DNA of 64,000 nt, from the IMG/VR virus record IMGVR_UViG_3300034022_000267, positions 1-64,000 of that record; one strand, 5' to 3'. A model generated the notes under the pieces. The model saw only the letters and a list, made by a program, of their open reading frames with translations, ran no database searches and was not told the DNA's origin. This DNA comes from a virus (Duplodnaviria; Heunggongvirae; Uroviricota; Caudoviricetes). A program made the translations under genes and the position numbers. Shown piece by piece: positions 1,573 to 22,560 of this stretch (the first letter of the stretch is position 1; every line of letters starts with the position of its first letter).

Positions 1573-4158
1573 TTAACCTTTTTTGTTATTACGTCCCTTG
1601 GCATTCTCTTTTGCAACAGCAAGATCGTTTGTCATATTCTCTCTAGCCACTTTTATTTTTTCTTGTTCTATATTCATTTTATCATTTGCTTGTTTGCTTT
1701 TAGATTGAATATCAGCTATTTTTAATCCATATTCTTTAGTAGCTTTATCTTGATCATGAGCTAGTCTACTCATCTCCATTACATCAGGAATTTCATTAGA
1801 ATTAGTGTCTTCAGAAGCAACATTGCCAAATCCTGTAGCTTGTATAATAGCAATTTCTTTTTTAGATAATCTATCAAGTTCTTTTTGATAGTTTTCATTA
1901 GCTATATTAGAATCATATTGTTGTTGAGCTTGTGCTAATTGTGCTTGAGATTGTTCTTGTTGTTGTTGAACTTTTTGTTGTTCAAGTTCTTGTGCTTGTT
2001 GTTGTTGAGCAACTTGTTGATCTCTGAGATCTTTAAACACTTTCTTCATCTCTCTCATAGACTTGGTAGAATATAATTCTATTACATCATAAAGTGTGCC
2101 ACCATTTTGGATAATAGCTTGAGACAATTGTCTAAGTTCATTAAACATTTGTGTATCTTCTGGTCTATTAGTAAGGAACACTTTCAAATCACGAAAAGAA
2201 AGATCTGATCCATTTACTTGTACAAATGCAGATTCTCCTTCAGATGTAATATAAGAAAGAGTAGATTGTGGTTTAGATGATTCTACATAAAGTGCAGCAT
2301 CTATAATACTTTGATACAGCTGTCCAAGCACATACTCGTGAGCCACAAATAAGGGCTCTGTTTGAGAGTAACTCTGCTGCATTGCAGTGTTGGTCCCTGT
2401 AGCTGATTCAGAGGCAGAAATAGACCCCATACGTTGTTTAGACATACCTACAAGTTCCCAACATTCTTGTTTCATTTGTTGTGCAAGAGTGTAACGAGAT
2501 TGTATCTCTTGCGTACGTGTAAGATCAAGAGCTGTAAACTGATTAAATGAACTAGGACTCTTTAAATTCTCAGGACTATCATCAATAAATACCACTCCTC
2601 TATTACGTGCTTCCATTTCCCAAATGTCAAGAGCATCTTGTGCATCTCCATCTTTAGGAATAGGAATATGTCTCAATGACATAAGTTGCACCTTACCTAC
2701 CTCTTTCTCAAGAAGCTTGTATAATTGATTCATACACACATTGTATATCACCTGAAAAGGTTTCATAAGATCTACTAAGCTTTTTGCTTCTGTATTCTTC
2801 ACCTCATATGTTGTTCCTATAATAGGACAATAGTTTAATAACTTGAATGGTTTAATATGGTAGATGTCTGGTCCAATCTTAGTTCCTTGGTACCATTGGT
2901 TAATCCATCCCCATTCTAATGATTGTTGTTGAGGATGTGTTCCTGATTTATAATCTTCAGTAACAAGTGTTGATTGCTCATTACCCATATCATCTATGTA
3001 AATCAATTTGCCTATTTTCTTTTTAGATATCCAATATGATCTAACAACAACATACTTATATCCAAATGAACTTACGTTATTGGTAAGACCTAAGAAATCT
3101 TTTAAGCCATCATTGTTTTCTTTCATTTCTGATTCAATGATCATTCTTGTCTGTAAAACAAGAGGGTCAAATGTATCATACATTACAGAATCTTGTCCTG
3201 GAACAGCATCTGGATTACCTAGATTGGATTCTCTTACATTGATTAATCCATAATCCTGTAAAGAACTTCTAAGGTGATCTATTTCTTCTTTAGTTAAGTC
3301 TGGAATAGATTCAATAATTTCAGACAGTTCCATAACTTGCACAGTGCCAGCAGCATAAGCTCCTTGTGCTCTTCCTGTAGGATCTGATATATATTTTCTA
3401 TCAGGTGTACTTAAGAACCAAGTGTTCTTTGGGTTAGCCACTTCAATGTTAAATCCAAGCTTTGAGTTATCTTCGTATATGTGATAGAACTCTCTAGCAG
3501 ATATTAACATATCTCTAAATGCATCTTCGCTCTTTTCTTTAATGTTAAACTCAGCTTTCTGACATGTAAGAACATGATTGGCCCATTTCTCAGCAATAGA
3601 TGTATAGCTATCTAACTGATCTTTAACTTGTTCCATTGTCATTTGCTCCAATTGCTCAGGTTCAATTTCTTCTCCTTGCATTGCTGCTTTAGCTGTAAGC
3701 TGTTGCTTCACTTGACTAATAACATATTGTTGAAGAGTGTCTGTTTTGAATTGTAGTTCTTCTGATTGACTATCATCATCAAAAGCTTTCACTCTAAATG
3801 TATCTGGTCTTTTAGATATCTCTCCTACAAGTTCATTAATAGGAGTGGTGATAATTGAATACATCTTTACATAAGCAGGAAGTTCTAGATCTGATGTAAG
3901 AACATCTGTAAAGCTTCTTACCTCTGGTTCTTGATAGAAATCTTCCATACGTAAGATTCCTTTCATAAGATCATAATTTGGAACAAATGTATCTCTATTC
4001 TTTATGTATTCAGCATATGCTTTATTGGAAAAATAATCCATTGTATTCTTTATCCAACTTTCATCTTCTTTTTCCTTCTCTGTTTTAAACTGATCAGGGA
4101 ATATGTTTAAGTATGCATACCTAATGGTAGCGTCTTTTGTATATCTAATTATTGCCAT
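1573..4158 (-). CDS. Portal protein
   Basis: 861 aa, immediately downstream of the large terminase on the same strand. It has a glutamine-rich helical C-terminus (QQVAQQQQAQELEQQKVQQQQEQSQAQLAQAQQQ) reminiscent of P22-type portal barrels. Size fits large podovirus portals. Confidence 0.55.
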   Translation of the reverse strand: MAIIRYTKDATIRYAYLNIFPDQFKTEKEKEDESWIKNTMDYFSNKAYAEYIKNRDTFVPNYDLMKGILRMEDFYQEPEVRSFTDVLTSDLELPAYVKMYSIITTPINELVGEISKRPDTFRVKAFDDDSQSEELQFKTDTLQQYVISQVKQQLTAKAAMQGEEIEPEQLEQMTMEQVKDQLDSYTSIAEKWANHVLTCQKAEFNIKEKSEDAFRDMLISAREFYHIYEDNSKLGFNIEVANPKNTWFLSTPDRKYISDPTGRAQGAYAAGTVQVMELSEIIESIPDLTKEEIDHLRSSLQDYGLINVRESNLGNPDAVPGQDSVMYDTFDPLVLQTRMIIESEMKENNDGLKDFLGLTNNVSSFGYKYVVVRSYWISKKKIGKLIYIDDMGNEQSTLVTEDYKSGTHPQQQSLEWGWINQWYQGTKIGPDIYHIKPFKLLNYCPIIGTTYEVKNTEAKSLVDLMKPFQVIYNVCMNQLYKLLEKEVGKVQLMSLRHIPIPKDGDAQDALDIWEMEARNRGVVFIDDSPENLKSPSSFNQFTALDLTRTQEIQSRYTLAQQMKQECWELVGMSKQRMGSISASESATGTNTAMQQSYSQTEPLFVAHEYVLGQLYQSIIDAALYVESSKPQSTLSYITSEGESAFVQVNGSDLSFRDLKVFLTNRPEDTQMFNELRQLSQAIIQNGGTLYDVIELYSTKSMREMKKVFKDLRDQQVAQQQQAQELEQQKVQQQQEQSQAQLAQAQQQYDSNIANENYQKELDRLSKKEIAIIQATGFGNVASEDTNSNEIPDVMEMSRLAHDQDKATKEYGLKIADIQSKSKQANDKMNIEQEKIKVARENMTNDLAVAKENAKGRNNKKG

Positions 4159-4179
4159 TATATTGTTTATTTTTATTTA

Positions 4180-4419
4180 TTAAGAATGCATAAAATTACA
4201 TAAGTTTTCATTAGGACATTCAGGAATAAAATCATCTACTGATAAATCTTGATTTCTAAAATATAATAATGCACTTGGTTTTTTGTATTCTTCTAACATT
4301 ATTTTTCTATCTCTAATTGGTAAACTTAAATACCAATCAAGAGAAAAAGCTTTATTGTGTTCTCCAGCAGATTGTATATTATTGTAATATTTATCAATCC
4401 AATATTTTCTTGTTGCCAT
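4180..4419 (-). CDS. Hypothetical protein
   Basis: 79 aa ORF tightly packed between the portal and large terminase genes. Confidence 0.35.
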   Translation of the reverse strand: MATRKYWIDKYYNNIQSAGEHNKAFSLDWYLSLPIRDRKIMLEEYKKPSALLYFRNQDLSVDDFIPECPNENLCNFMHS

Positions 4420-4420
4420 G

Positions 4421-6451
4421 TTATCTAAACATTTTATGTTTGTTACTATTAAACATTCCCTTTGATTCAGAGAATAGTGAATTTTTTTTCTTTTTAGAAT
4501 AGAGAGAAGTTATCCTTACATCTTCAACTCCACCTGTTCTTCCCATTATAGGATTTAATTTCATCGCCAAAGATACAGCTAATTCTGCAGCAATGATTCT
4601 ATCAAAGTTGCCTGTCTCATTATATTGTATCATTTCTTCTAATAATACAGGATCAAATATCTTTGCCATCCCTTTTGTTTCAGAAATGACATTACCCTCA
4701 TCATCTTTTTCTACATGTATAACTTCTTCTGTGTATGTCTTTAAACATCCATGCAGAAAGTCTCGTATTTTTTCAGCAGATCTATGTATTCCATAATCCC
4801 TTCTAACTGTTGTATTAGGAACTATTTCTTTTAACCAATCTGGTTGTCTTTCTAAATAATGTGCATCTCCTTTTGAGATCATATAATCTATAAAAGAGAT
4901 TTCATCGTTTTCACACAATGTTCTAGCATTGTAGTACTTAATCAATAATCTTGCCTGCTCTTCCCATGTTTCTTTCTTGTCTGGTCTAGCACAATAACTA
5001 GCAACAAACATATCTTGATACTTTTCTCCTGCAATAGCATGCATTCTTTTGTATATATATACAGATCCTAATGAACTTGAATAAGCAGACTTACCTTGTC
5101 TATAAGGATCGACTCCTGCAACATATAATCCATAAGGAGGTGTGTCAATTGGAAACTCATATATAACTACAGGAGCATCTTTTTGATCACTGTTCTTTAA
5201 TGGGAAATTTGATATAGGAAGCTTATCTGTAAACTCATGTTTCACACCTTGTCCATCATCATATAAAACAACAGGAGTACCTGTTCTTTCTTGTGCTAAT
5301 AGCTTGGCTTTCTGACGTTTAGCTGCTTCTATATCAAATATGTTTGTATCTTCATTTAAGAATATGTCATCCACCTCTTGTGGATAATACATCTTTTCTT
5401 TTAAATATGCAAGTCTATCACCAGCTTTTTTTAATCTGTCAAGATTATCATTTGTAATCTTATCTGCTTTTTCTAAATTAGAAACAAGCATCTTTACATT
5501 ATGTAATTCAGAATCTTCTGGTTGTTCTAAATAAGCTCCTAATGTAGAATCTTCTTTAGCTTCCATTCTATATTTATGGGAGATGAATAGTCCATGGATT
5601 CTTTGATCATCCTTTGCACTATTATATTCCAGGAAGTTGAAATTGGCTACATCAAACATTAAGCTTTTTGCATCCATGAAATTCTGCATATCTCCACCTG
5701 TACCTGTAAGTATAGGGCTACAGCCCCAACCAAATGGTGTGGTGAAACCTGGTGTAGCAGCTTGTAATCCTCTGAGGAAATTACCCTTACCTATCTCATC
5801 AATGATAAGTCTTCTTGGTTTTGTACCTGCAATAGCCTCTTCATTATTACCACCATCTAAGTTACGAATAAGGATCTGAGAAAAGGGGATTCTCTCTCCT
5901 GCTTTTGTCTTGATCCCTAATGTAACTTGGTTTTTCCAGTTGTCTTCCACTCTCTGCCATCTCCAGGCTTCAGGTAGGAAGTTTAATCCTTTGTCAATCT
6001 TATCTGTGATAAGCTTTATATCGGGAGCATTCAATCCTGCTATAATGTTCTGGGAATTCTCATCGAATGTTGCCCCATGACCTATATAGGAACTCTCAAT
6101 TACTGACTTAGCCAAACGTCTAATACCTAGTATCACTAGGCCTTTCTTTTCTGTATGTGCTCTATCTATTTCATTTGTGATTATCCACTCATTATCACGT
6201 AGATATGGATTAGCATATTTTTGATTAATCCTTCCACGATCATCTATAATATCCACCTCTGTATTCCAGAAGTTTAAATGCCAATATAGAAAAGGGTTAA
6301 TATAAACTCCTCCCATTGTACAGCCATCAATACATAGTTGTTTATGGAAAGCATAAAATGCTTTATACTCTTCTGAGTCCTTTGATGGAACTCTCTTTTG
6401 ATTGATAAACCAATCTCCGTATTCAATACTCTGTAAGCCATCTATTATCAT
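4421..6451 (-). CDS. terL: Terminase large subunit
   Basis: 676 aa with an N-terminal ATPase (deviant P-loop GIRRLAKS, Walker B-like LIIDEIGK) and a C-terminal RNaseH-like nuclease with an acidic cluster (VAGVDPYRQGKS). Typical TerL architecture. Confidence 0.8.
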   Translation of the reverse strand: MIIDGLQSIEYGDWFINQKRVPSKDSEEYKAFYAFHKQLCIDGCTMGGVYINPFLYWHLNFWNTEVDIIDDRGRINQKYANPYLRDNEWIITNEIDRAHTEKKGLVILGIRRLAKSVIESSYIGHGATFDENSQNIIAGLNAPDIKLITDKIDKGLNFLPEAWRWQRVEDNWKNQVTLGIKTKAGERIPFSQILIRNLDGGNNEEAIAGTKPRRLIIDEIGKGNFLRGLQAATPGFTTPFGWGCSPILTGTGGDMQNFMDAKSLMFDVANFNFLEYNSAKDDQRIHGLFISHKYRMEAKEDSTLGAYLEQPEDSELHNVKMLVSNLEKADKITNDNLDRLKKAGDRLAYLKEKMYYPQEVDDIFLNEDTNIFDIEAAKRQKAKLLAQERTGTPVVLYDDGQGVKHEFTDKLPISNFPLKNSDQKDAPVVIYEFPIDTPPYGLYVAGVDPYRQGKSAYSSSLGSVYIYKRMHAIAGEKYQDMFVASYCARPDKKETWEEQARLLIKYYNARTLCENDEISFIDYMISKGDAHYLERQPDWLKEIVPNTTVRRDYGIHRSAEKIRDFLHGCLKTYTEEVIHVEKDDEGNVISETKGMAKIFDPVLLEEMIQYNETGNFDRIIAAELAVSLAMKLNPIMGRTGGVEDVRITSLYSKKKKNSLFSESKGMFNSNKHKMFR

Positions 6452-17642: not shown

Positions 17643-18876
17643 TGAGTATATGGGATGATGGGTATGACGATTACTATGGTAGTCGTTATGCTCCAACCTA
17701 TACTACTAAAAAGAGTAAAGGTGGATGGAAAGATAAATATGGTGGTAGTGGGTGGAGTAAAAAAGGAGGATGGAGTTCCTTTACTTGGAGTTATGGTAGT
17801 GATACAGATAACAATGATGATCTTGTTGTTAAAGATCCTGTTACATATATAACACCAACCACTTCAGAGATCAGAAAGAAAGTGAGAGCTCCTAAACAAA
17901 CATCTATTGATACAATCAAAGAATTAGCACGAGTGTGTTATTTCAAAATGATTGATGAAAAAGACTATCTAGTTGAGCAATATGCAGATTATGATAATCT
18001 ACCTGATGAAGAAAAAGGTGCTATATCAACAAAGAAAGAATTGTACGATAGTATATTTGATCAATATATTCCTGGATTCTCTCCATTAGACCAAGCTATA
18101 TCTATTTATTTGAAGTTACAAAGTACTGATAAAGAGAAAGCTGATCCTAGGGATGATGAGGATGATGAAGACTTGGATATGAAGAAAGGCTTAGACTTTG
18201 ATAGAAATTTGTATTCTGATCCAAACATCAATGAACAACTAGAGCTTAATGAGCTTAGTAAAGATAGAAAGATGGAGATTATGAACCATCTATCTCTTGT
18301 TGGTCAGTTTGGTAGTGAATTCAAAGTGGAAAAGGAAATATCTGAAAAGATAGTTGCTAATTCTGATCAGTATGCTGCAATGATTATGAGAGACTACTCT
18401 CAAATTCATATGATGAATCTAATGCAAAAGGTATATCCTCATTTTAGAAGTAAGTTCTTAACTAAAGACTTGACAGTGAGTGTTCCTGTTGATAGAAAAG
18501 AACAGATTCAAAAGATTATCATCATTCTTGATTACTCAGGTTCTATGGGCTATGATGATAAACAGATATGGGTTAATGCTATATTAATCGACAGGTTTAA
18601 GTATGTCATGAGAGGAGAAGCTGAAGTGTTCTTTAGTTATTTTGTTGAAAATACAAGTGATCTTGATTTCCAACATATCAAGAACAGAGAAGATGTTATT
18701 GCATTTTGGCAAACATTCTCTAATGAACCAGGTGGTGGTATGACAGAAGTTGGTGATATGGTTGAACATATTTCTAATGAGATACAAGCTAAAAGATTAT
18801 GTAATCTTGATGTAGATCTTTCTGAAGAAAAGCCTGAAATCCTAATTATCAATGATGGTCAATTTGGCCTAGACAT
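17642..18876 (+). CDS. vWA-domain protein (CobT-like partner of the MoxR ATPase), exon 1
   Basis: MIDAS motif ILDYSGSM (DxSxS), a downstream Thr (GGGMTEVGD) and Asp (ILIINDGQ). Its start overlaps the ATPase stop (ATGA). The annotated stop at 18878-18880 follows ...GQFGLDI. Confidence 0.55.
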
Positions 18877-19839
18877 ATAGTAATATATGTCCGTAATTCC
18901 TTTAATTGCTGGGACCCCTAAGTTACACCTACGAGGGTAATATGGAAATCAGCAGCGAAATAATGTTATTTTATCTTGCATATCATTAATACTATTTGTA
19001 TCTTTGTTGTATAATCATAAATTATGAAAAAATACACATTTGATACAGATTATTTTAAACAAATTAACACAGAAGAAAAAGCCTATTGGTTAGGTTTTAT
19101 TGCAGCCGATGGTTATCTTAACAAAAGAGGTAACACATTAGGAATTTGTTTAGATATTAGTGATAAATCACATTTAGAAAAGTTTAAAACAAGTATAGCA
19201 TATACAGGTAATGTATTTACTAGAACATCTCAATACTCAAAAGAGCATAGAATTACAGAAAAAGCTGTAATTGAGATATATAGTACAGAGTTATCAAAAG
19301 ATATTAATACATATGGATTAGACTATGAAAAATCTAAAACACTTAGTACTATTAATAATGTACCAAAAGAACTAATGAATCACTTTATCAGAGGTCACTT
19401 TGATGGTGATGGATGTTTATTCTTCGAAAAAGGAAGAAAAGAAACACATAAAGGTTCTCCAGGTATAACAATAGTAGGAACTAAATCATTTTTAGAATAT
19501 ATATGTGAATTTATTCCAGATTCTCCAAAATCATTACAATATGATAAAAGAACTGCTGGAACTTACACTTTATATTTAAAATCTATTAAACGATATAAAA
19601 AGTTTACAGATTATATATACAAAGATGCAACAGTGTATCTTGATAGAAAGTTTTTAAAACATCAAGATATATTAAAAAAGATAGAATAACAAGAAACGTT
19701 CAACGACTATTGCTGAAATGCAAGTACACTCAAGTGAGTGGAAAAGGGGAACATCCTACGAGGATGGAGATATAGTCTGATCTTATAGGAAACTATAAGC
19801 AGTTCTTAAGAGAACGCTATTGTATTAACGAAACAATAG
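18877..19839 (+). mobile_element. Putative group I intron (~963 nt) carrying a LAGLIDADG homing endonuclease gene
   Basis: The 3' part contains GAGAUAUAGUCUGA, close to the P7/P9.0 region of the T4 td intron (GAAGAUAUAGUCUGAAC, recalled from memory). It ends in G 19839. The upstream exon can end on U 18876 with a possible P1 between gacat (18872-18876) and atgtc (18887-18891). Splicing keeps the reading frame into the 19847 ORF. Confidence 0.5.
19024..19689 (+). CDS. LAGLIDADG homing endonuclease (double-motif, intron-encoded)
   Basis: 221 aa with two LAGLIDADG motifs: WLGFIAADGYL and FIRGHFDGDGCLFF. Confidence 0.75.
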   Translation: MKKYTFDTDYFKQINTEEKAYWLGFIAADGYLNKRGNTLGICLDISDKSHLEKFKTSIAYTGNVFTRTSQYSKEHRITEKAVIEIYSTELSKDINTYGLDYEKSKTLSTINNVPKELMNHFIRGHFDGDGCLFFEKGRKETHKGSPGITIVGTKSFLEYICEFIPDSPKSLQYDKRTAGTYTLYLKSIKRYKKFTDYIYKDATVYLDRKFLKHQDILKKIE

Positions 19840-20029
19840 GAACATAATGCAAGATAGTATCCATACAGATAAATTCCCATACAAGGTGAATGCTGTATCA
19901 TTGATGGAATTCAGTGATGAACTAAAAGACTTGTGTAATGCTACAGGTGGTAAACAAATTGAGATTACAAATGATCTTCGTGTGTTTACATATTCCACTG
20001 AAGCAGGTAAACAAGAAATTAAGAGTTAA
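19840..20029 (+). CDS. vWA-domain protein, exon 2 (C-terminal ~62 aa)
   Basis: An in-frame stop at 19826-19828 bounds the exon on the 5' side. Joined to 18876 the frame continues ...GQFGLD-MNIMQDSIHTDKFPYK... The exact junction is uncertain. Confidence 0.4.
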
Positions 20030-20101: not shown

Positions 20102-20272
20102 ATGATAAACAAAATCTTTTTAACATTCATAGTGGTAGCACTATGGATATTTGCATCAGTATGGTGCTTTAATCACATAAATGCCTGGATTGGGATAGGG
20201 GTATTTATATTAGGAATATACATCTCAGTAAAACAAATTTTTAAACCAAGTAAAAAAACAGAGGAAAAATGA
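20102..20272 (+). CDS. Small two-TM membrane protein (NfeD-like partner?)
   Basis: 56 aa (MINKIFLTFIVVALWIFASVWCFNHINAWIGIGVFILGIYISVKQIFKPSKKTEEK), not in the ORF track. Its stop overlaps the start of the next gene (ATGA). Confidence 0.4.
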   Translation: MINKIFLTFIVVALWIFASVWCFNHINAWIGIGVFILGIYISVKQIFKPSKKTEEK

Positions 20273-21084
20273 AAAAATTATTAGTAGTAGCGTTATTAGC
20301 AGTAGCAGGATTTGGATTATTAACATCATGTGATCGTGTAGCTCCAAATTATTATGGTGTTCTTATGGAAAACTATGGTAAAGATGGTAAATCAGATTAT
20401 ACAAAGGTGCAAGGTAGAGTGTCTACAATGTCACCTGGAACAGAATTGTTTGAAGTTCCTGCTTGGGAACAAAGAGGTGTATTCACTGATGACAATGGTG
20501 AAGACAGAGTGTTGCAAATAAAAGCTGCAGATAACACAGCATTTACATCTAAACCATTGTATTCATATAAAGTGATTGAAAATAGAGCAGTTGATGTTGT
20601 ATTCCAAAATGCTAGACTAGGTTCAGGTGGTGATTTTATGAATGCTTTACAAGATAATGTATTAGAGCCTCGTATATATGATATTATTAAAGAAGCTTCT
20701 AGAGGATATAGTACAGATCAATTAATGGCTAATGGTGGTTCATTAAAGTTTGAGCAGTATGTTCAAGATATAGTTGTTAAAGAATTTGATAAATCAGGAT
20801 TGGAATTGATTAGCTTTAGTCTTAATTTAGACTTCTCTAAGAAAGTGAAAGCAAAAATTGATAGTAGAAATGAGGTAAATACAAACATTTCTGTATTAGA
20901 TCAACAGATTGCTGAACAAAGAAAGCGTAATGAGCTAGAAACATTAAAGACTGAACAAAACAAAATCAGAAGTGCTGGTATTACACCACAATTGTTACAA
21001 GAACAAGCAATCAAGAAATGGAATGGACATTTACCAAGTACATATTCTGGTAGTGCATTACCATTTGTTAAAGCAGTAAATTAA
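20269..21084 (+). CDS. Lipoprotein with SPFH/band-7-like domain and coiled-coil
   Basis: 271 aa with a signal peptide plus lipobox (LLTSC). The central region resembles stomatin/prohibitin-type domains; the C-terminus is coiled-coil. Confidence 0.4.
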   Translation: MKKLLVVALLAVAGFGLLTSCDRVAPNYYGVLMENYGKDGKSDYTKVQGRVSTMSPGTELFEVPAWEQRGVFTDDNGEDRVLQIKAADNTAFTSKPLYSYKVIENRAVDVVFQNARLGSGGDFMNALQDNVLEPRIYDIIKEASRGYSTDQLMANGGSLKFEQYVQDIVVKEFDKSGLELISFSLNLDFSKKVKAKIDSRNEVNTNISVLDQQIAEQRKRNELETLKTEQNKIRSAGITPQLLQEQAIKKWNGHLPSTYSGSALPFVKAVN

Positions 21085-21507
21085 TAAAAAACAGGCTAAA
21101 CATTGACCCTTTGTAAGTTATCGAGTAGTAGAGATGTTGCAGAAATGCGTTATGACAAATCGAGAAGTAGATGATTACATAAAGATACTATCAGAGATGG
21201 TAGAACGTGAGTTGCCTTGAGAAAGCAATGAGCCATAGCTAAGAGAGTAAAAACTAAATCCGACTTCTCTACTCACGTAATGAGTTCTCAGCAAGTAGTT
21301 AATCCAACGGAGGAAAGGTAGAAATACTGAAGGACACTCAAAAGGGATGCAGGAAACCAAAGTCTTAGAAAGGTCTGTAACTACGTGACCTTACTCTTAT
21401 TATCCAAAGCTCTCTAGTGCTAAAATGTAATAAGAAAGAGGGTGCTAATACAAGTTGATCATTGGTCAACACAACTAAATGATAAGTGCCCTCACATGAG
21501 GGAAATT
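21085..21507 (+). other. Unassigned ~420-nt ORF-free region with elevated GC and multiple hairpins; candidate structured ncRNA
   Basis: No credible ORF on either strand. Local stems include aaggtc...gacctt, ttgc...gcaa and a long-range gtagaga/tctctac pair. It lies directly 5' of the tmRNA gene. Confidence 0.3.
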
Positions 21508-21843
21508 GGGGGTGACTGATTTTGACAGGTTACCAATAGTTAGTACAATCAGCCAGAGAGATAACTGTAAACTAAGGTGAATTATTTTAAATGGCAAAAA
21601 CACAAGTCGTGTAGTGGCTCTAGGAGCAAACGCACAAATCGAAGCTAACATGAACAAAGTGTTCTCACTTATCAGTGAGGATGTTGTAATAGTTGGTTTA
21701 GCAGCCTAAATTCAATAAGGATTTCCCTGTTAGATTAAACAGGGTGGTGGATCGTTAAGCCTAGCTTGACCCTAAATAAGCTGTATAAATTGTATTAATG
21801 AACGTAGATCTGGACCTGGGTTTGATTCCCAGCACCTCCACTA
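21508..21843 (+). ncRNA. ssrA: tmRNA (ssrA-like) gene
   Basis: 5' end GGGGGUGACUGAUUUUGACAGG resembles the E. coli 5' end GGGGCUGAUUCUGGAUUCGACGGG. 3' end GGACCUGGGUUUGAUUCCCAGCACCUCCA resembles GGACGGGGGUUCAAAUCCCCCCGGCUCCACCA. The acceptor stem is GGGGGUG/CACCUCC with a G3-U70 pair. A tag-like ORF ends ...VGLAA-TAA at 21707-21709. A terminator follows. Confidence 0.8.
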
Positions 21844-21862
21844 GCTGATTATCAGCATGTTA

Positions 21863-21888
21863 AGCCTCTGTAACAAGAGGCTTTTTTA
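21863..21888 (+). terminator. Rho-independent terminator after tmRNA
   Basis: gcctct-gtaaca-agaggc followed by TTTTTT. Confidence 0.7.
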
Positions 21889-21890
21889 TT

Positions 21891-21912
21891 TGTATTTTTT
21901 AATCCTTAATAA
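21891..21912 (+). promoter_or_regulatory. 22-nt leader repeat TGTATTTTTTAATCCTTAATAA (second exact copy at 22561..22582)
   Basis: Exact duplicate immediately upstream of two start codons (21923 and 22592). Related TCCTTAATAA elements precede 13379 and 14818. Confidence 0.45.
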
Positions 21913-21922
21913 CTAAATAACA

Positions 21923-22381
21923 ATGGAAATAAGTAAGATTTGTAGTAAATGTTTATTAATTAAACCACGTTCTCTTTTTTATAATGATAAGCGAAGTAAA
22001 TTAGGAATAACTTCAAGATGTAAAAATTGTATTAAAATTGCTAAACGTTCATACAATATGTCTGAAGAAACTAAATTAAAAAAATATGAATATGTAAAAA
22101 ACTTCAGAAAAAAACATCCTGAAAAAACAAAACTTTATTCTTGTAATAATGTAATTAAAATAAGAGAATGTTCTAAAAAAGCATATAATAATAATAAAGA
22201 TGCATATTTAAAAAGAACAGGTGCACGTTCTAAATTATTATGTTCTGAACTAAATGATGAATATATTTTGTTTTTATTACATAGAATTGTGCCTAAAAAT
22301 ATAATTATTTCTCAAGAACTTATAGAACTAAAACGAATCCAACTTAAAACTTATAGATTATGTCAACAATTACAAAATTAA
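21923..22381 (+). CDS. Basic zinc-ribbon protein (homing-endonuclease-like N-terminal DNA-binding module, no nuclease motif seen)
   Basis: 152 aa. ICSKCLLIKPRSLFYND...CKNCI parallels the N-terminus of the HNH endonuclease at 8919..9524 (CVVCEIVKPKSEF...CISC). Confidence 0.4.
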   Translation: MEISKICSKCLLIKPRSLFYNDKRSKLGITSRCKNCIKIAKRSYNMSEETKLKKYEYVKNFRKKHPEKTKLYSCNNVIKIRECSKKAYNNNKDAYLKRTGARSKLLCSELNDEYILFLLHRIVPKNIIISQELIELKRIQLKTYRLCQQLQN

Positions 22382-22560
22382 CAGAAAAAATGCTTGATAA
22401 CTATGAAAAACTAGAATCAGGTCAAAGATCAATTGCTAAGGCTAAAGCTCTTAATGAATCAGCTAATATTATTATTAGACTTGCTTTGTTACAACTCACA
22501 CATTCTATTCCTGCATCACAATCACCAAAGGTGAAAGTATTGAATGAAAAGAACCTATAA
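22360..22560 (+). CDS. Hypothetical protein
   Basis: 66 aa. Confidence 0.3.
   Translation: MSTITKLTEKMLDNYEKLESGQRSIAKAKALNESANIIIRLALLQLTHSIPASQSPKVKVLNEKNL

Follow-up and report, generated by a model that had tools for sequence, protein, structure and literature searches.

A small group of phage-encoded structured RNAs is found beside tRNA genes, and the function of its members is unknown. Among them, the stable RNAs C and D of phage T4 (also named species 1 and 2), of about 120-140 nucleotides (nt) and restricted to T4-like phages, are co-transcribed with tRNAs and released by the tRNA-processing machinery. GOLLD and ROOL, which form multimers, are also often found beside tRNA genes. These are large and intricate RNAs of phages and prophages, which hold multiple pseudoknots and tetraloop-type contacts and whose biochemical function is unknown as well (PMC12286853). 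Theta ribozymes of gut phages are, in turn, small structured RNAs that lie in tRNA arrays directly beside tRNA genes, built on the nested double pseudoknot of hepatitis delta virus (HDV) ribozymes (P1, P1.1, P2, P3, P4) and provided with a catalytic C (PMC10879173). The last example comes from Cellulophaga phage phi14:2, where RNA sequencing (RNA-seq) during infection revealed an abundant, early and persistent transcript from the g004-g005 intergenic region; the intergenic transcripts of this phage were termed long non-coding RNAs (lncRNAs) of unknown function by Drobysheva et al., whose paper reports the transcript only, with no structure, family or distribution (bioRxiv 10.1101/2020.03.07.982082). 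The family described here joins this group. The copy under study is found in a 64,000-nt stretch of DNA from a virus of the Caudoviricetes (the window; positions 1 to 64,000 of IMG/VR record IMGVR_UViG_3300034022_000267), within the gap 21085-21507 that separates a lipoprotein gene (20269-21084; PHROG "lipoprotein" assignment) from a transfer-messenger RNA (tmRNA) gene.

Positions 21094-21448 on the + strand of the window are predicted, by comparison with homologues, to be the gene for a 355-nt non-coding RNA, the full-size (type A) form of an uncatalogued family that is labelled here tRNA-cluster-associated kissing-loop RNA. The family profile matches the element with 174.5 bits (nhmmer, E = 6.9e-52, profile positions 1-312). 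Conservation sets in abruptly at GG(Y)UAAACAUUGA, the window copy starting at GGCUAAACAUUGA in all alignments, and it stops at GAGGGUGCUAA, again in all alignments, while the flanks are unrelated from locus to locus. The 59 nt that remain before the tmRNA gene (21449-21507) are a spacer with two hairpins, outside the conserved RNA.

A previous reading of the window from its letters alone, the sequence-only reading, had described this gap as free of credible open reading frames (ORFs), richer in G+C than its flanks and structured in appearance. The first two points were borne out. The longest ORF within 21085-21507 has 61 amino acids (aa), both strands considered, and none is conserved. Among 84 distinct homologues, the longest stop-free stretch in any frame has a median of 53.5 aa, the lengths of the element are spread over all three classes modulo 3, and a check of reading frames found no protein-coding gene in its place. 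The G+C fraction is 0.38-0.41 in the region, 0.28-0.33 in the upstream gene and about 0.21 past the tmRNA. The structured appearance stood on other grounds than the single sequence, whose folding energy does not improve on chance (+ strand, z = -1.34; - strand, z = +0.28) and whose z-scores were not counted as evidence; it was the comparison with homologues that proved decisive. The findings that would have refuted the sequence-only reading did not appear: no protein gene occupies this place in relatives, covariation is present, and a transcript is reported for the phi14:2 homologue.

These homologues are numerous, but only one of them is in a deposited phage record. A BLAST search against 50,697 phage records returned a single match, phi14:2, in three short pieces of 97% identity, with otherwise almost no DNA similarity to the window. 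The conserved blocks were chosen by reading the window and phi14:2 side by side, and three of them, used for exact-word scans of IMG/VR, recovered 116, 94 and at least 120 loci, respectively. Essentially all loci of the first two scans were matched by a profile made from 45 copies, and the family is present in more than 250 IMG/VR phage contigs, with carriers ranging from a few kb up to 373 kb. Blocks of 20 nt are near-identical among phages without other DNA similarity. The window phage itself encodes a portal protein, a large terminase, a DNA polymerase and rIIA/rIIB, and is therefore no close relative of phi14:2. In 185,579 bacterial and archaeal genomes, a 17-mer gave 15 hits and the other blocks occurred in 3 loci on 2 contigs, which argues that the family is essentially confined to phages. 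These cellular carriers are L176 and L182, two copies on one contig of a metagenome-assembled genome (MAG) assigned to "Clostridium sp." (NZ_JBNMNU010000001.1, 100,089 bp), and L183. The size and content of the 100-kb contig suggest a phage genome binned into the MAG rather than a chromosomal locus.

The structure model, drawn from alignments and RNAalifold, consists of eight helical elements, H1 to H8, and a pseudoknot (Table 1). It was evaluated on an alignment (A4) of 33 distinct full-size copies in which the unalignable hairpin tips were replaced by NNNN. The named structure leaves 92.6% of cells paired, compared with 83.4% in shuffles; 28 of its 48 pairs show changes on both sides, with 117 such cells where 36 were expected, and none of 500 shuffles attained any observed value. 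When the partners were shifted by 1-3 columns, only 35-45% of cells were paired. The compensatory changes come mostly from H3 (6/6 pairs), H4 (6/7) and H5 (3/4). A conserved, covarying fold is shown for the predicted RNA. The + strand is assigned because of the GNRA loops, the U-G pairs in H3 and the shared orientation with neighbouring tRNA and tmRNA genes.

Table 1. Coordinates of the predicted RNA gene, its structural elements and the features that follow it, in window positions
Feature	Positions	Strand	Description
Whole RNA gene	21094-21448	+	nhmmer profile match; type A, 355 nt
H1	21094-21109	+	short GG/CC stem closing the conserved loop UAAACAUUGA
H2	21109-21184	+	long hairpin with conserved base CUUUGUAA.../...UUACAUAAAG and variable tip
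H3	21188-21203	+	CUAUCA-GAGA-UGGUAG; GNRA tetraloop GAGA at 21194-21197
Core three-way junction H4/H5/H6	21205-21278	+	only part common to types A, B and C
H4	21205-21211 with 21272-21278	+	7-bp helix enclosing H5 and H6
H5	21212-21215 with 21225-21228	+	4 bp; loop CUUGAGAAA at 21216-21224
H6	about 21230-21270	+	variable region
Invariant block	21279-21298	+	AAUGAGUUCUCAGCAAGUAG, contains UUCUCAG
Pseudoknot	21217-21223 (UUGAGAA, H5 loop) with 21285-21291 (UUCUCAG)	+	7 bp, by complementarity
H7	21292-21387	+	conserved base CA.GUAGUUA / UAACUAC.UG, variable tip
H8	21388-21443	+	ACCUU (21388-21392) with AGGGU (21439-21443), internal loop, then UCUUAUUAU/GUAAUAAGA
3' tail	21444-21448	+	GCUAA; invariant up to here, unrelated sequence beyond
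Spacer hairpin 1	21454-21470	+	GUUGA.../...UCAAC
Spacer hairpin 2	21490-21502	+	CCCUC-ACAU-GAGGG, preceded by UGAUAAGUG
tmRNA gene	21508-21843	+	ARAGORN; Rfam RF00023, 74.7 bits, model positions 1-374 (whole model)
Intrinsic terminator	21862-21883	+	only + strand site in a scan of 20200-22400

The stem of H1 covaries, as judged by eye (GGU/ACC, GC/GC, CGU/ACG, CUCG/CGAG, GUGG/CCAC, GGG/CCC), around a loop that is nearly invariant, and the tip of H2, of 0 to about 200 nt, is unalignable, with the whole hairpin lacking in L009, L014 and L005. In H3, 99% of cells are paired and the loop varies in the family among GUAA, GAAA, GUGA and GAGA. The two strands of H4 read ACGUGAG/CUCACGU in the window and UGUGUUG/CAACACA in most members. 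Compensatory changes affect 5 of 10 base pairs in H7 and 7 of 9 in the upper helix of H8; the basal helix of the latter also covaries, with a U-G pair in the window that is U:A in L067 and L097 and G:C in L053. The pseudoknot is paired in 99.6% of cells, its sole changes being single ones that keep a wobble, and L124 carries a 170-nt insert between GAG and UUCUCAG. Finally, the C:G-rich basal helix of H8 is probably the receptor of the H3 tetraloop, clamping the two halves of the RNA together. Docking of the tetraloop on the 3' domain is proposed because the GNRA hairpin co-occurs with this domain: it stands directly 5' of H4 in 80 of 108 and 10 of 15 copies that have the 3' domain (90/123), and in none of 45 type C copies.

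Two further pairings were considered and not adopted. The helix GAGU/ACUC, returned by RNAalifold, has variants (AAUC, AAUA, AAGU) that are not compensated; in its favour are the corresponding stem GAGG/CCUC of the type C hairpin and one compensatory change in L127, and it is a possible alternative or tertiary pairing. The pairing of CAUU in the H1 loop with AAUG involves only 4 bp, without covariation. As for the complementary segments quoted in the sequence-only reading, ttgccttgagaaagcaa corresponds to the covarying helix H5 (21212-21228), whereas the other two are peculiar to the window copy: aaggtc...gacctt overlaps strands of H7 and H8 that are conserved, and gtagaga...tctctac links the variable tip of H2 to H6 and H4.

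The family is found in several forms, which range from 75 to 730 nt and have in common only the core and UUCUCA. Type A, to which the window copy belongs, holds all of H1-H8 and has a median of 334 nt; in 17 copies, H7 is replaced entirely by UU. Type B has another 5' domain, with a GNRA hairpin, a short H4 and an H5 with the loop UGUAUGAGAUAU, followed by an unchanged 3' domain. Type C is a minimal form of 75-153 nt (median 86.5) that consists of H4/H5/H6 and the hairpin GAGGA-CUUCUCA-UCCUC. H1 is missing from types B and C. Since the loop of the type C hairpin presents the UUCUCA that is the partner of the H5 loop, a loop-loop contact would replace here the pseudoknot of type A. The family is accordingly defined by the junction and the contact between the H5 loop and UUCUCA, which are common to all forms. 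The window copy has H4 enclosing H5 and a variable H6, with UUCUCA(G) 3' of H4 and complementary to the H5 loop; it also has a GNRA hairpin 5' of H4 and a 3' domain (21292-21448) ending in ...GAAAGAGGGUGCUAA, and it is phage-encoded, with the tmRNA 60 nt downstream on the same strand. Some contigs bear two copies (L036 3862-4670, L056, L106, L193, L219, L221, L245, L253), spaced from 5 nt, as in the tandem of L036, to hundreds or thousands of nt, and L127 and L240 lie on the same 161-kb contig. One contig bears a full-size and a minimal form together.

Several copies of the RNA gene contain homing endonuclease-like ORFs: L004 (6395-7560), L094 (12320-13300, - strand), L053 (7814-8506), L104, L158, L042 and L043. 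The insertions interrupt H8 or fall at GAGUUCUCA, and since each brings along a duplicated or replacement domain, the RNA remains complete. In L004 and L094, where the insertion falls exactly at the UUCUCAG strand of the pseudoknot, a terminator-like hairpin comes after the type A 5' domain, whose end is GAGUUCUCA, and then a 161-aa ORF which, on reading its sequence, has features of an HNH homing endonuclease and apparently its own Bacteroidetes-type promoter; after this ORF, a type B 5' domain is joined at GAGUUCUCAGCAAG to the intact 3' domain. The type B 5' domain appears to travel with the endonuclease gene, and a search of L004 against Rfam found no intron. In L053, the endonuclease-like gene lies in H8. 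Before it stands a short, complete 3' end in which the helix is compensated (ACCGU/ACGGU); after it, part of the 3' end is duplicated. As a rule, the sites chosen by homing elements are those under the greatest constraint in important genes. Because of this, and because each insertion leaves a complete copy, the RNA would be under selection, with the UUCUCA region and the base of H8 as critical parts.

The homologue in phi14:2 lies at 2913-3359 of the record (2722-3168 of locus L001), is 447 nt long and aligns block by block with the window copy. It is non-coding and located upstream of a tmRNA gene (4031-4500) on the same strand, with an ORF-containing stretch of about 670 nt in between. RefSeq (updated June 2020) places g004 at 2194-2904 and g006 at 4602-4901. 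These positions bracket both genes, so the first published lncRNA region would contain the element and the second the tmRNA. For phi14:2 only, the published data show the transcript of the homologue to be abundant, to accumulate as early as the first stage of infection and to persist. The phi14:2 lncRNA would thus be of the same family and, like the window copy, lies upstream of a tmRNA gene on its own strand; the two differ in that phi14:2 is a crAss-like phage with a copy of 447 nt and about 670 nt to the tmRNA, whereas the window phage has rIIA/rIIB, a copy of 355 nt and a distance of 60 nt. In GenBank (KC821624), three "hypothetical proteins" of 34-39 aa (gp007-gp009) were annotated opposite the RNA gene (3106-3431, - strand); they were dropped by RefSeq in 2020, with no RNA annotated instead. 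What was already known of the family is therefore this transcript, noticed once without further analysis, and what is new is the family itself, its structure and its distribution. No description of these three was found in Rfam 15 or in the searchable literature, beyond which papers may exist.

The sequence-only reading had proposed a novel non-coding RNA and asked for a comparison with the whole of Rfam, including GOLLD, ROOL, RNase P, OLE and introns. Rfam 15 was searched with the whole window and 15 loci at the gathering score, with four family members at E <= 10 and with the phi14:2 locus at E <= 1, and nothing overlaps the element in any of them, which supports a non-coding RNA with no Rfam family. 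In particular, no covariance model of GOLLD, ROOL, OLE, raiA, HEARO or other large RNAs matches the members searched. GOLLD and ROOL share with the family their presence in phages beside tRNA-type genes, a kinship in setting that the earlier reading had suggested and that is borne out by a strong enrichment beside tRNA and tmRNA genes. They differ from it in sequence and structure, the present family being smaller (75-730 nt) with another core, and in setting: this family belongs to marine Flavobacteriia-type phages, whereas GOLLD and ROOL are named for Lactobacillales, rumen and lake settings. The likeness to the T4 stable RNAs is one of description, as phage-encoded stable RNAs of a tRNA cluster. 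Theta ribozymes resemble the family in being small structured RNAs of phage tRNA arrays, with a pseudoknotted core about the size of type C. By inspection, however, types A and C have neither a P2 nor a conserved C-bearing 3' strand, and Rfam gave no HDV-type hit in the members searched, the presence of theta ribozymes in Rfam 15 being uncertain. Group I introns are similar in their GNRA tetraloop clamp, long-range pseudoknot and associated homing endonuclease genes, but their helices are arranged in another order, and the family has no P7 R/S elements, exons or Rfam match.

The genomic context of the family varies with its form. Of the type A copies (92 distinct ones), 9% have a tRNA 3' end within 45 nt of their start, 4% have a tRNA start within 30 nt of their end, and for 10% a tmRNA follows within 130 nt downstream. 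For the 46 type C copies, the two tRNA figures are 28% and 41%. The background, taken from random positions in these loci, is 0.8% for tRNA 3' ends, 0.8% for tRNA starts and 0.05% for tmRNAs. Overall, direct adjacency to a tRNA or tmRNA is seen in 22% of the type A copies and in 54% of those of type C, minimal forms occur between tRNA genes, and no tRNA or tmRNA is present inside about 130 nt in about 78% of the full-size copies. All close neighbours called by ARAGORN lie on the same strand as the RNA. Protein-coding neighbours are loosely associated: 15 loci have an SPFH-type lipoprotein upstream, 16 have a vWA-like protein, and 49 have a repeated hypothetical protein at variable distance. 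In the window, the first + strand terminator past the lipoprotein gene is the one that follows the tmRNA, which makes a common transcript of lipoprotein gene, RNA and tmRNA likely.

On balance, the RNA is probably a stable, trans-acting molecule that tRNA-processing enzymes free from a co-transcript and that is tied to the functions of phage tRNAs or tmRNA. According to this proposal, it would be co-transcribed with the upstream lipoprotein gene and the downstream tmRNA, and cleavage by RNase P at the 5' end of the tmRNA (21508) would free its 3' side, with subsequent trimming releasing the RNA; in other phages, neighbouring tRNAs would serve the same purpose. The H4/H5/H6 junction, locked by the UUGAGAA-UUCUCAG pseudoknot, would be the functional centre, to which full-size members add H1, H2, the GNRA hairpin H3 and the 3' domain (H7 and H8). 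The RNA would then act in trans as a folded particle and not as a cis leader. Its target would be, as a best guess and the weakest step of the scheme, a conserved component, from host or phage, of translation, tRNA processing or tRNA-directed defence, which it would bind or sequester during takeover. An action in trans is preferred because most full-size copies are away from RNA genes, the phi14:2 RNA persists and the constraint on the sequence exceeds the needs of a spacer.

Several points weigh against this proposal. Clustering of the neighbouring ORFs revealed no protein gene tightly linked to the RNA. In addition, a tRNA-like gene begins 5-7 nt after the end of 41% of the minimal forms. 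The members were gathered by exact words, which inflates the apparent conservation of the searched blocks, and the tested structure was derived from the same family, with the variable hairpin tips masked. The pseudoknot and the putative tetraloop-receptor contact rest on invariance, wobble-compatible changes and co-occurrence of modules, not on strict compensation. Finally, the equation of the published g004-g005 junction with the element is inferred from RefSeq gene numbers.

An alternative that is rather unlikely, but that fits the minimal forms at least, is a cis-acting leader or processing module for the downstream gene, with no role of its own after cleavage. Such a module could present the 5' end of the tRNA or tmRNA to RNase P, protect the precursor, or insulate it from the upstream mRNA. 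The short and regular distance of so many minimal forms to a tRNA-like gene agrees with this, as do the position of the RNA 60 nt upstream of the tmRNA in the window and 13-92 nt upstream in at least 8 other loci, the constant co-orientation of tRNA and tmRNA neighbours and an interval between RNA and tmRNA that holds no terminator. The full-size copies tell otherwise, since 78% of them have no tRNA or tmRNA in about 130 nt and many copies are directly followed by protein genes or a terminator-like hairpin. In phi14:2, about 670 nt containing an ORF precede the tmRNA, and the transcript stays high through infection, unlike a discarded leader. Sequence conservation also goes well beyond what a spacer needs. 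A processed leader of the tmRNA, as suggested in the sequence-only reading, is for these reasons (the isolation of about 78% of full-size copies and the intervening ORF of phi14:2) not retained as the principal explanation. Nor is the element part of the tmRNA itself, given that model positions 1-374 are filled by 21508-21843 alone and that most members have no tmRNA nearby.

It is unlikely, to a greater degree, that the RNA is a new self-cleaving or catalytic RNA that cuts at its own end and so sets the ends of the neighbouring tRNA, tmRNA or mRNA, as theta ribozymes do. The compact pseudoknotted core with invariant junction nucleotides and variable peripheral helices would suit a ribozyme, and there is precedent for one in phage tRNA arrays (PMC10879173). 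Copies that start 3-8 nt past a tRNA 3' end (about a dozen loci) or end 4-8 nt before tRNA starts would be well placed for such cleavage, and the invariant blocks are targeted by homing endonucleases. Against this, no known ribozyme family in Rfam matches the members searched, inspection reveals no HDV-like P2 helix, catalytic-C strand or hammerhead core, and many copies adjoin no RNA gene.

A group I intron, or an intergenic remnant of one, is very improbable and already largely refuted. The block GUUCUCAGCAAGUAG loosely resembles the R element; the RNA has a GNRA loop and a pseudoknot, some copies hold homing endonuclease genes, and a real group I intron is present in the same window. True introns do score in these searches, with 28.7 bits in the window (19617-19799) and 90.9 bits in L023, whereas the element has no hit to Intron_gpI (RF00028) in the window, L111, L004 (E <= 10) or L001 (E <= 1). 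The order P3-P9 does not apply, since both hairpins nest within H4, and there are no P7 R/S elements (..GACUA.. / ..UAGUC..). There are also no exons to join, because the flanks are unrelated between loci (protein genes, tRNAs, tmRNA); the lipoprotein gene has its own stop, and its full-length homologue ends at the corresponding residues. The endonuclease insertions bring duplicated or replacement domains and not intron cores. A reading on the opposite strand, in which the reverse complement of GUGACCCUACUC is like a segment of the T4 td and Twort introns, was set aside, the + strand being fixed by loops, U-G pairs and neighbours.

It is scarcely credible that the family represents a housekeeping RNA, be it a phage RNase P RNA that has diverged or, for instance, 6S or signal recognition particle (SRP) RNA. 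The size of the RNA is similar to that of RNase P RNA, and its neighbours are RNase P substrates. The sequence-only reading had pointed out GGAGGAAAGG...AGGGAUGCAGGAAACC as faintly like RNase P RNA; this stretch falls in the non-conserved tip of H7, common to L108 only, and the resemblance is not sustained. No model of RNase P (RF00010/RF00011), 6S, 6S-Flavo or SRP is hit at E <= 10 in the members searched, inspection of the conserved blocks reveals neither CR-I (GAGGAAAGUCC) nor CR-V (ACAGAAnCCGGCUUA) of P4, and minimal forms have merely 75-153 nt. Similarly, a similarity of AGAAAGAGGGUG to the complement of the 16S rRNA 3' end was dropped because this segment is base-paired inside H8. The chance that the region is a decayed protein gene or ordinary intergenic DNA with fortuitous complementarity, to which the folding energy of the single sequence and the three small opposite-strand ORFs once present in the phi14:2 GenBank record might have pointed, is practically nil and this reading is already refuted by the covariation and coding checks, given that RefSeq removed those ORFs, that there is no conserved frame and lengths are not multiples of three, and that blocks of 20 nt are near-identical across unrelated phages with compensatory changes in the stems.

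Besides the RNA itself, its surroundings hold other elements that recur. The motif UGAUAAGUG with the second spacer hairpin (21480-21502) is found again 3' of the RNA in about 14 loci, with stems that covary (CCCUC/GAGGG, CUCG/CGAG, CCAC/GUGG, GACGC/GCGUC) and a loop of ACAU type; it is followed by a tmRNA, in which case there is no run of U, or by a run of U, which makes it terminator-like. On the 5' side, at least 10 loci have a motif of about 50 nt, AAUAGCUAAGCUGUGUAAAGC(R)(Y)CAGA(W)CU(K)AUAA(W)CUGU..GAAGCUA, immediately before the RNA, often after a second conserved block, ..CACUUGUGAGUUGCAAUGA..AACUCUCAA; both may be further small structured RNAs of the same clusters. Type C copies are flanked by long tRNA-Leu-like genes of about 100-125 nt (L193, L207, L241, L244, L254, L260 and others). 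Their acceptor stem, D arm (GGUGGCGGAAUGGUAGACGC) and T arm are normal, and the region of the anticodon arm is long, variable and non-canonical; they are not called by ARAGORN, have weak Rfam scores and alternate with the minimal RNA in arrays.

The tmRNA of the window phage has an unusually long tag as predicted by ARAGORN, ANAQIEANMNKVFSLISEDVVIVGLAA. Relatives of this tmRNA, with about 75% identity, are found in Flavobacterium psychrophilum and Cellulophaga phages, where blastn detected no copy of the RNA. After the tmRNA and its strong terminator lies a 152-aa ORF of endonuclease VII / HNH-like type (21923-22381). Upstream of the lipoprotein gene, a vWA-like gene is split by about 987 nt (18863-19849): residues 1-305 of the intact L060 homologue correspond to 17947-18862 and residues 305-363 to 19850-20026 (tblastn). 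There is a stop codon just after the break, and the intervening DNA holds a LAGLIDADG-type ORF of 221 aa (19024-19689) and the match at 19617-19799 mentioned above, which is below threshold (E = 4e-5) and has the classic elements UCAACGACUA / GAUAUAGUC. This insertion looks like a group I intron with a homing endonuclease that is missed at the Rfam gathering score.

It is rare for a phage to encode a structured RNA whose function is unknown, as with GOLLD, ROOL and the T4 stable RNAs, and each of those found until now has been taken as a lead to possible new RNA biology. The present family is abundant: environmental phage contigs hold hundreds of distinct copies of it, and cellular genomes nearly none. 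Its only cultured carrier, phi14:2, is a laboratory model for crAss-like phages, and the RNA is, by the published data, among its most abundant early transcripts. This provides a testable system, with a cultured host and phage, existing RNA-seq data and a structural model that covers minimal (about 86 nt) and full-size forms. For annotation, the benefit is direct, as the region is now left unannotated or covered by spurious small ORFs. As a tentative possibility, the core may be the active centre of a new class of RNAs of phage tRNA arrays, either as an end-processing ribozyme or as a tRNA-sized mimic or decoy that captures a host factor of tRNA processing, tRNA-targeting defence or ribosome rescue. 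If either version is true, the full-size form would be an elaborated version of this centre, deployed with the phage tmRNA from the first minutes of infection. The family may also help to explain why phages have a tmRNA of their own and unusual tRNA-like genes.

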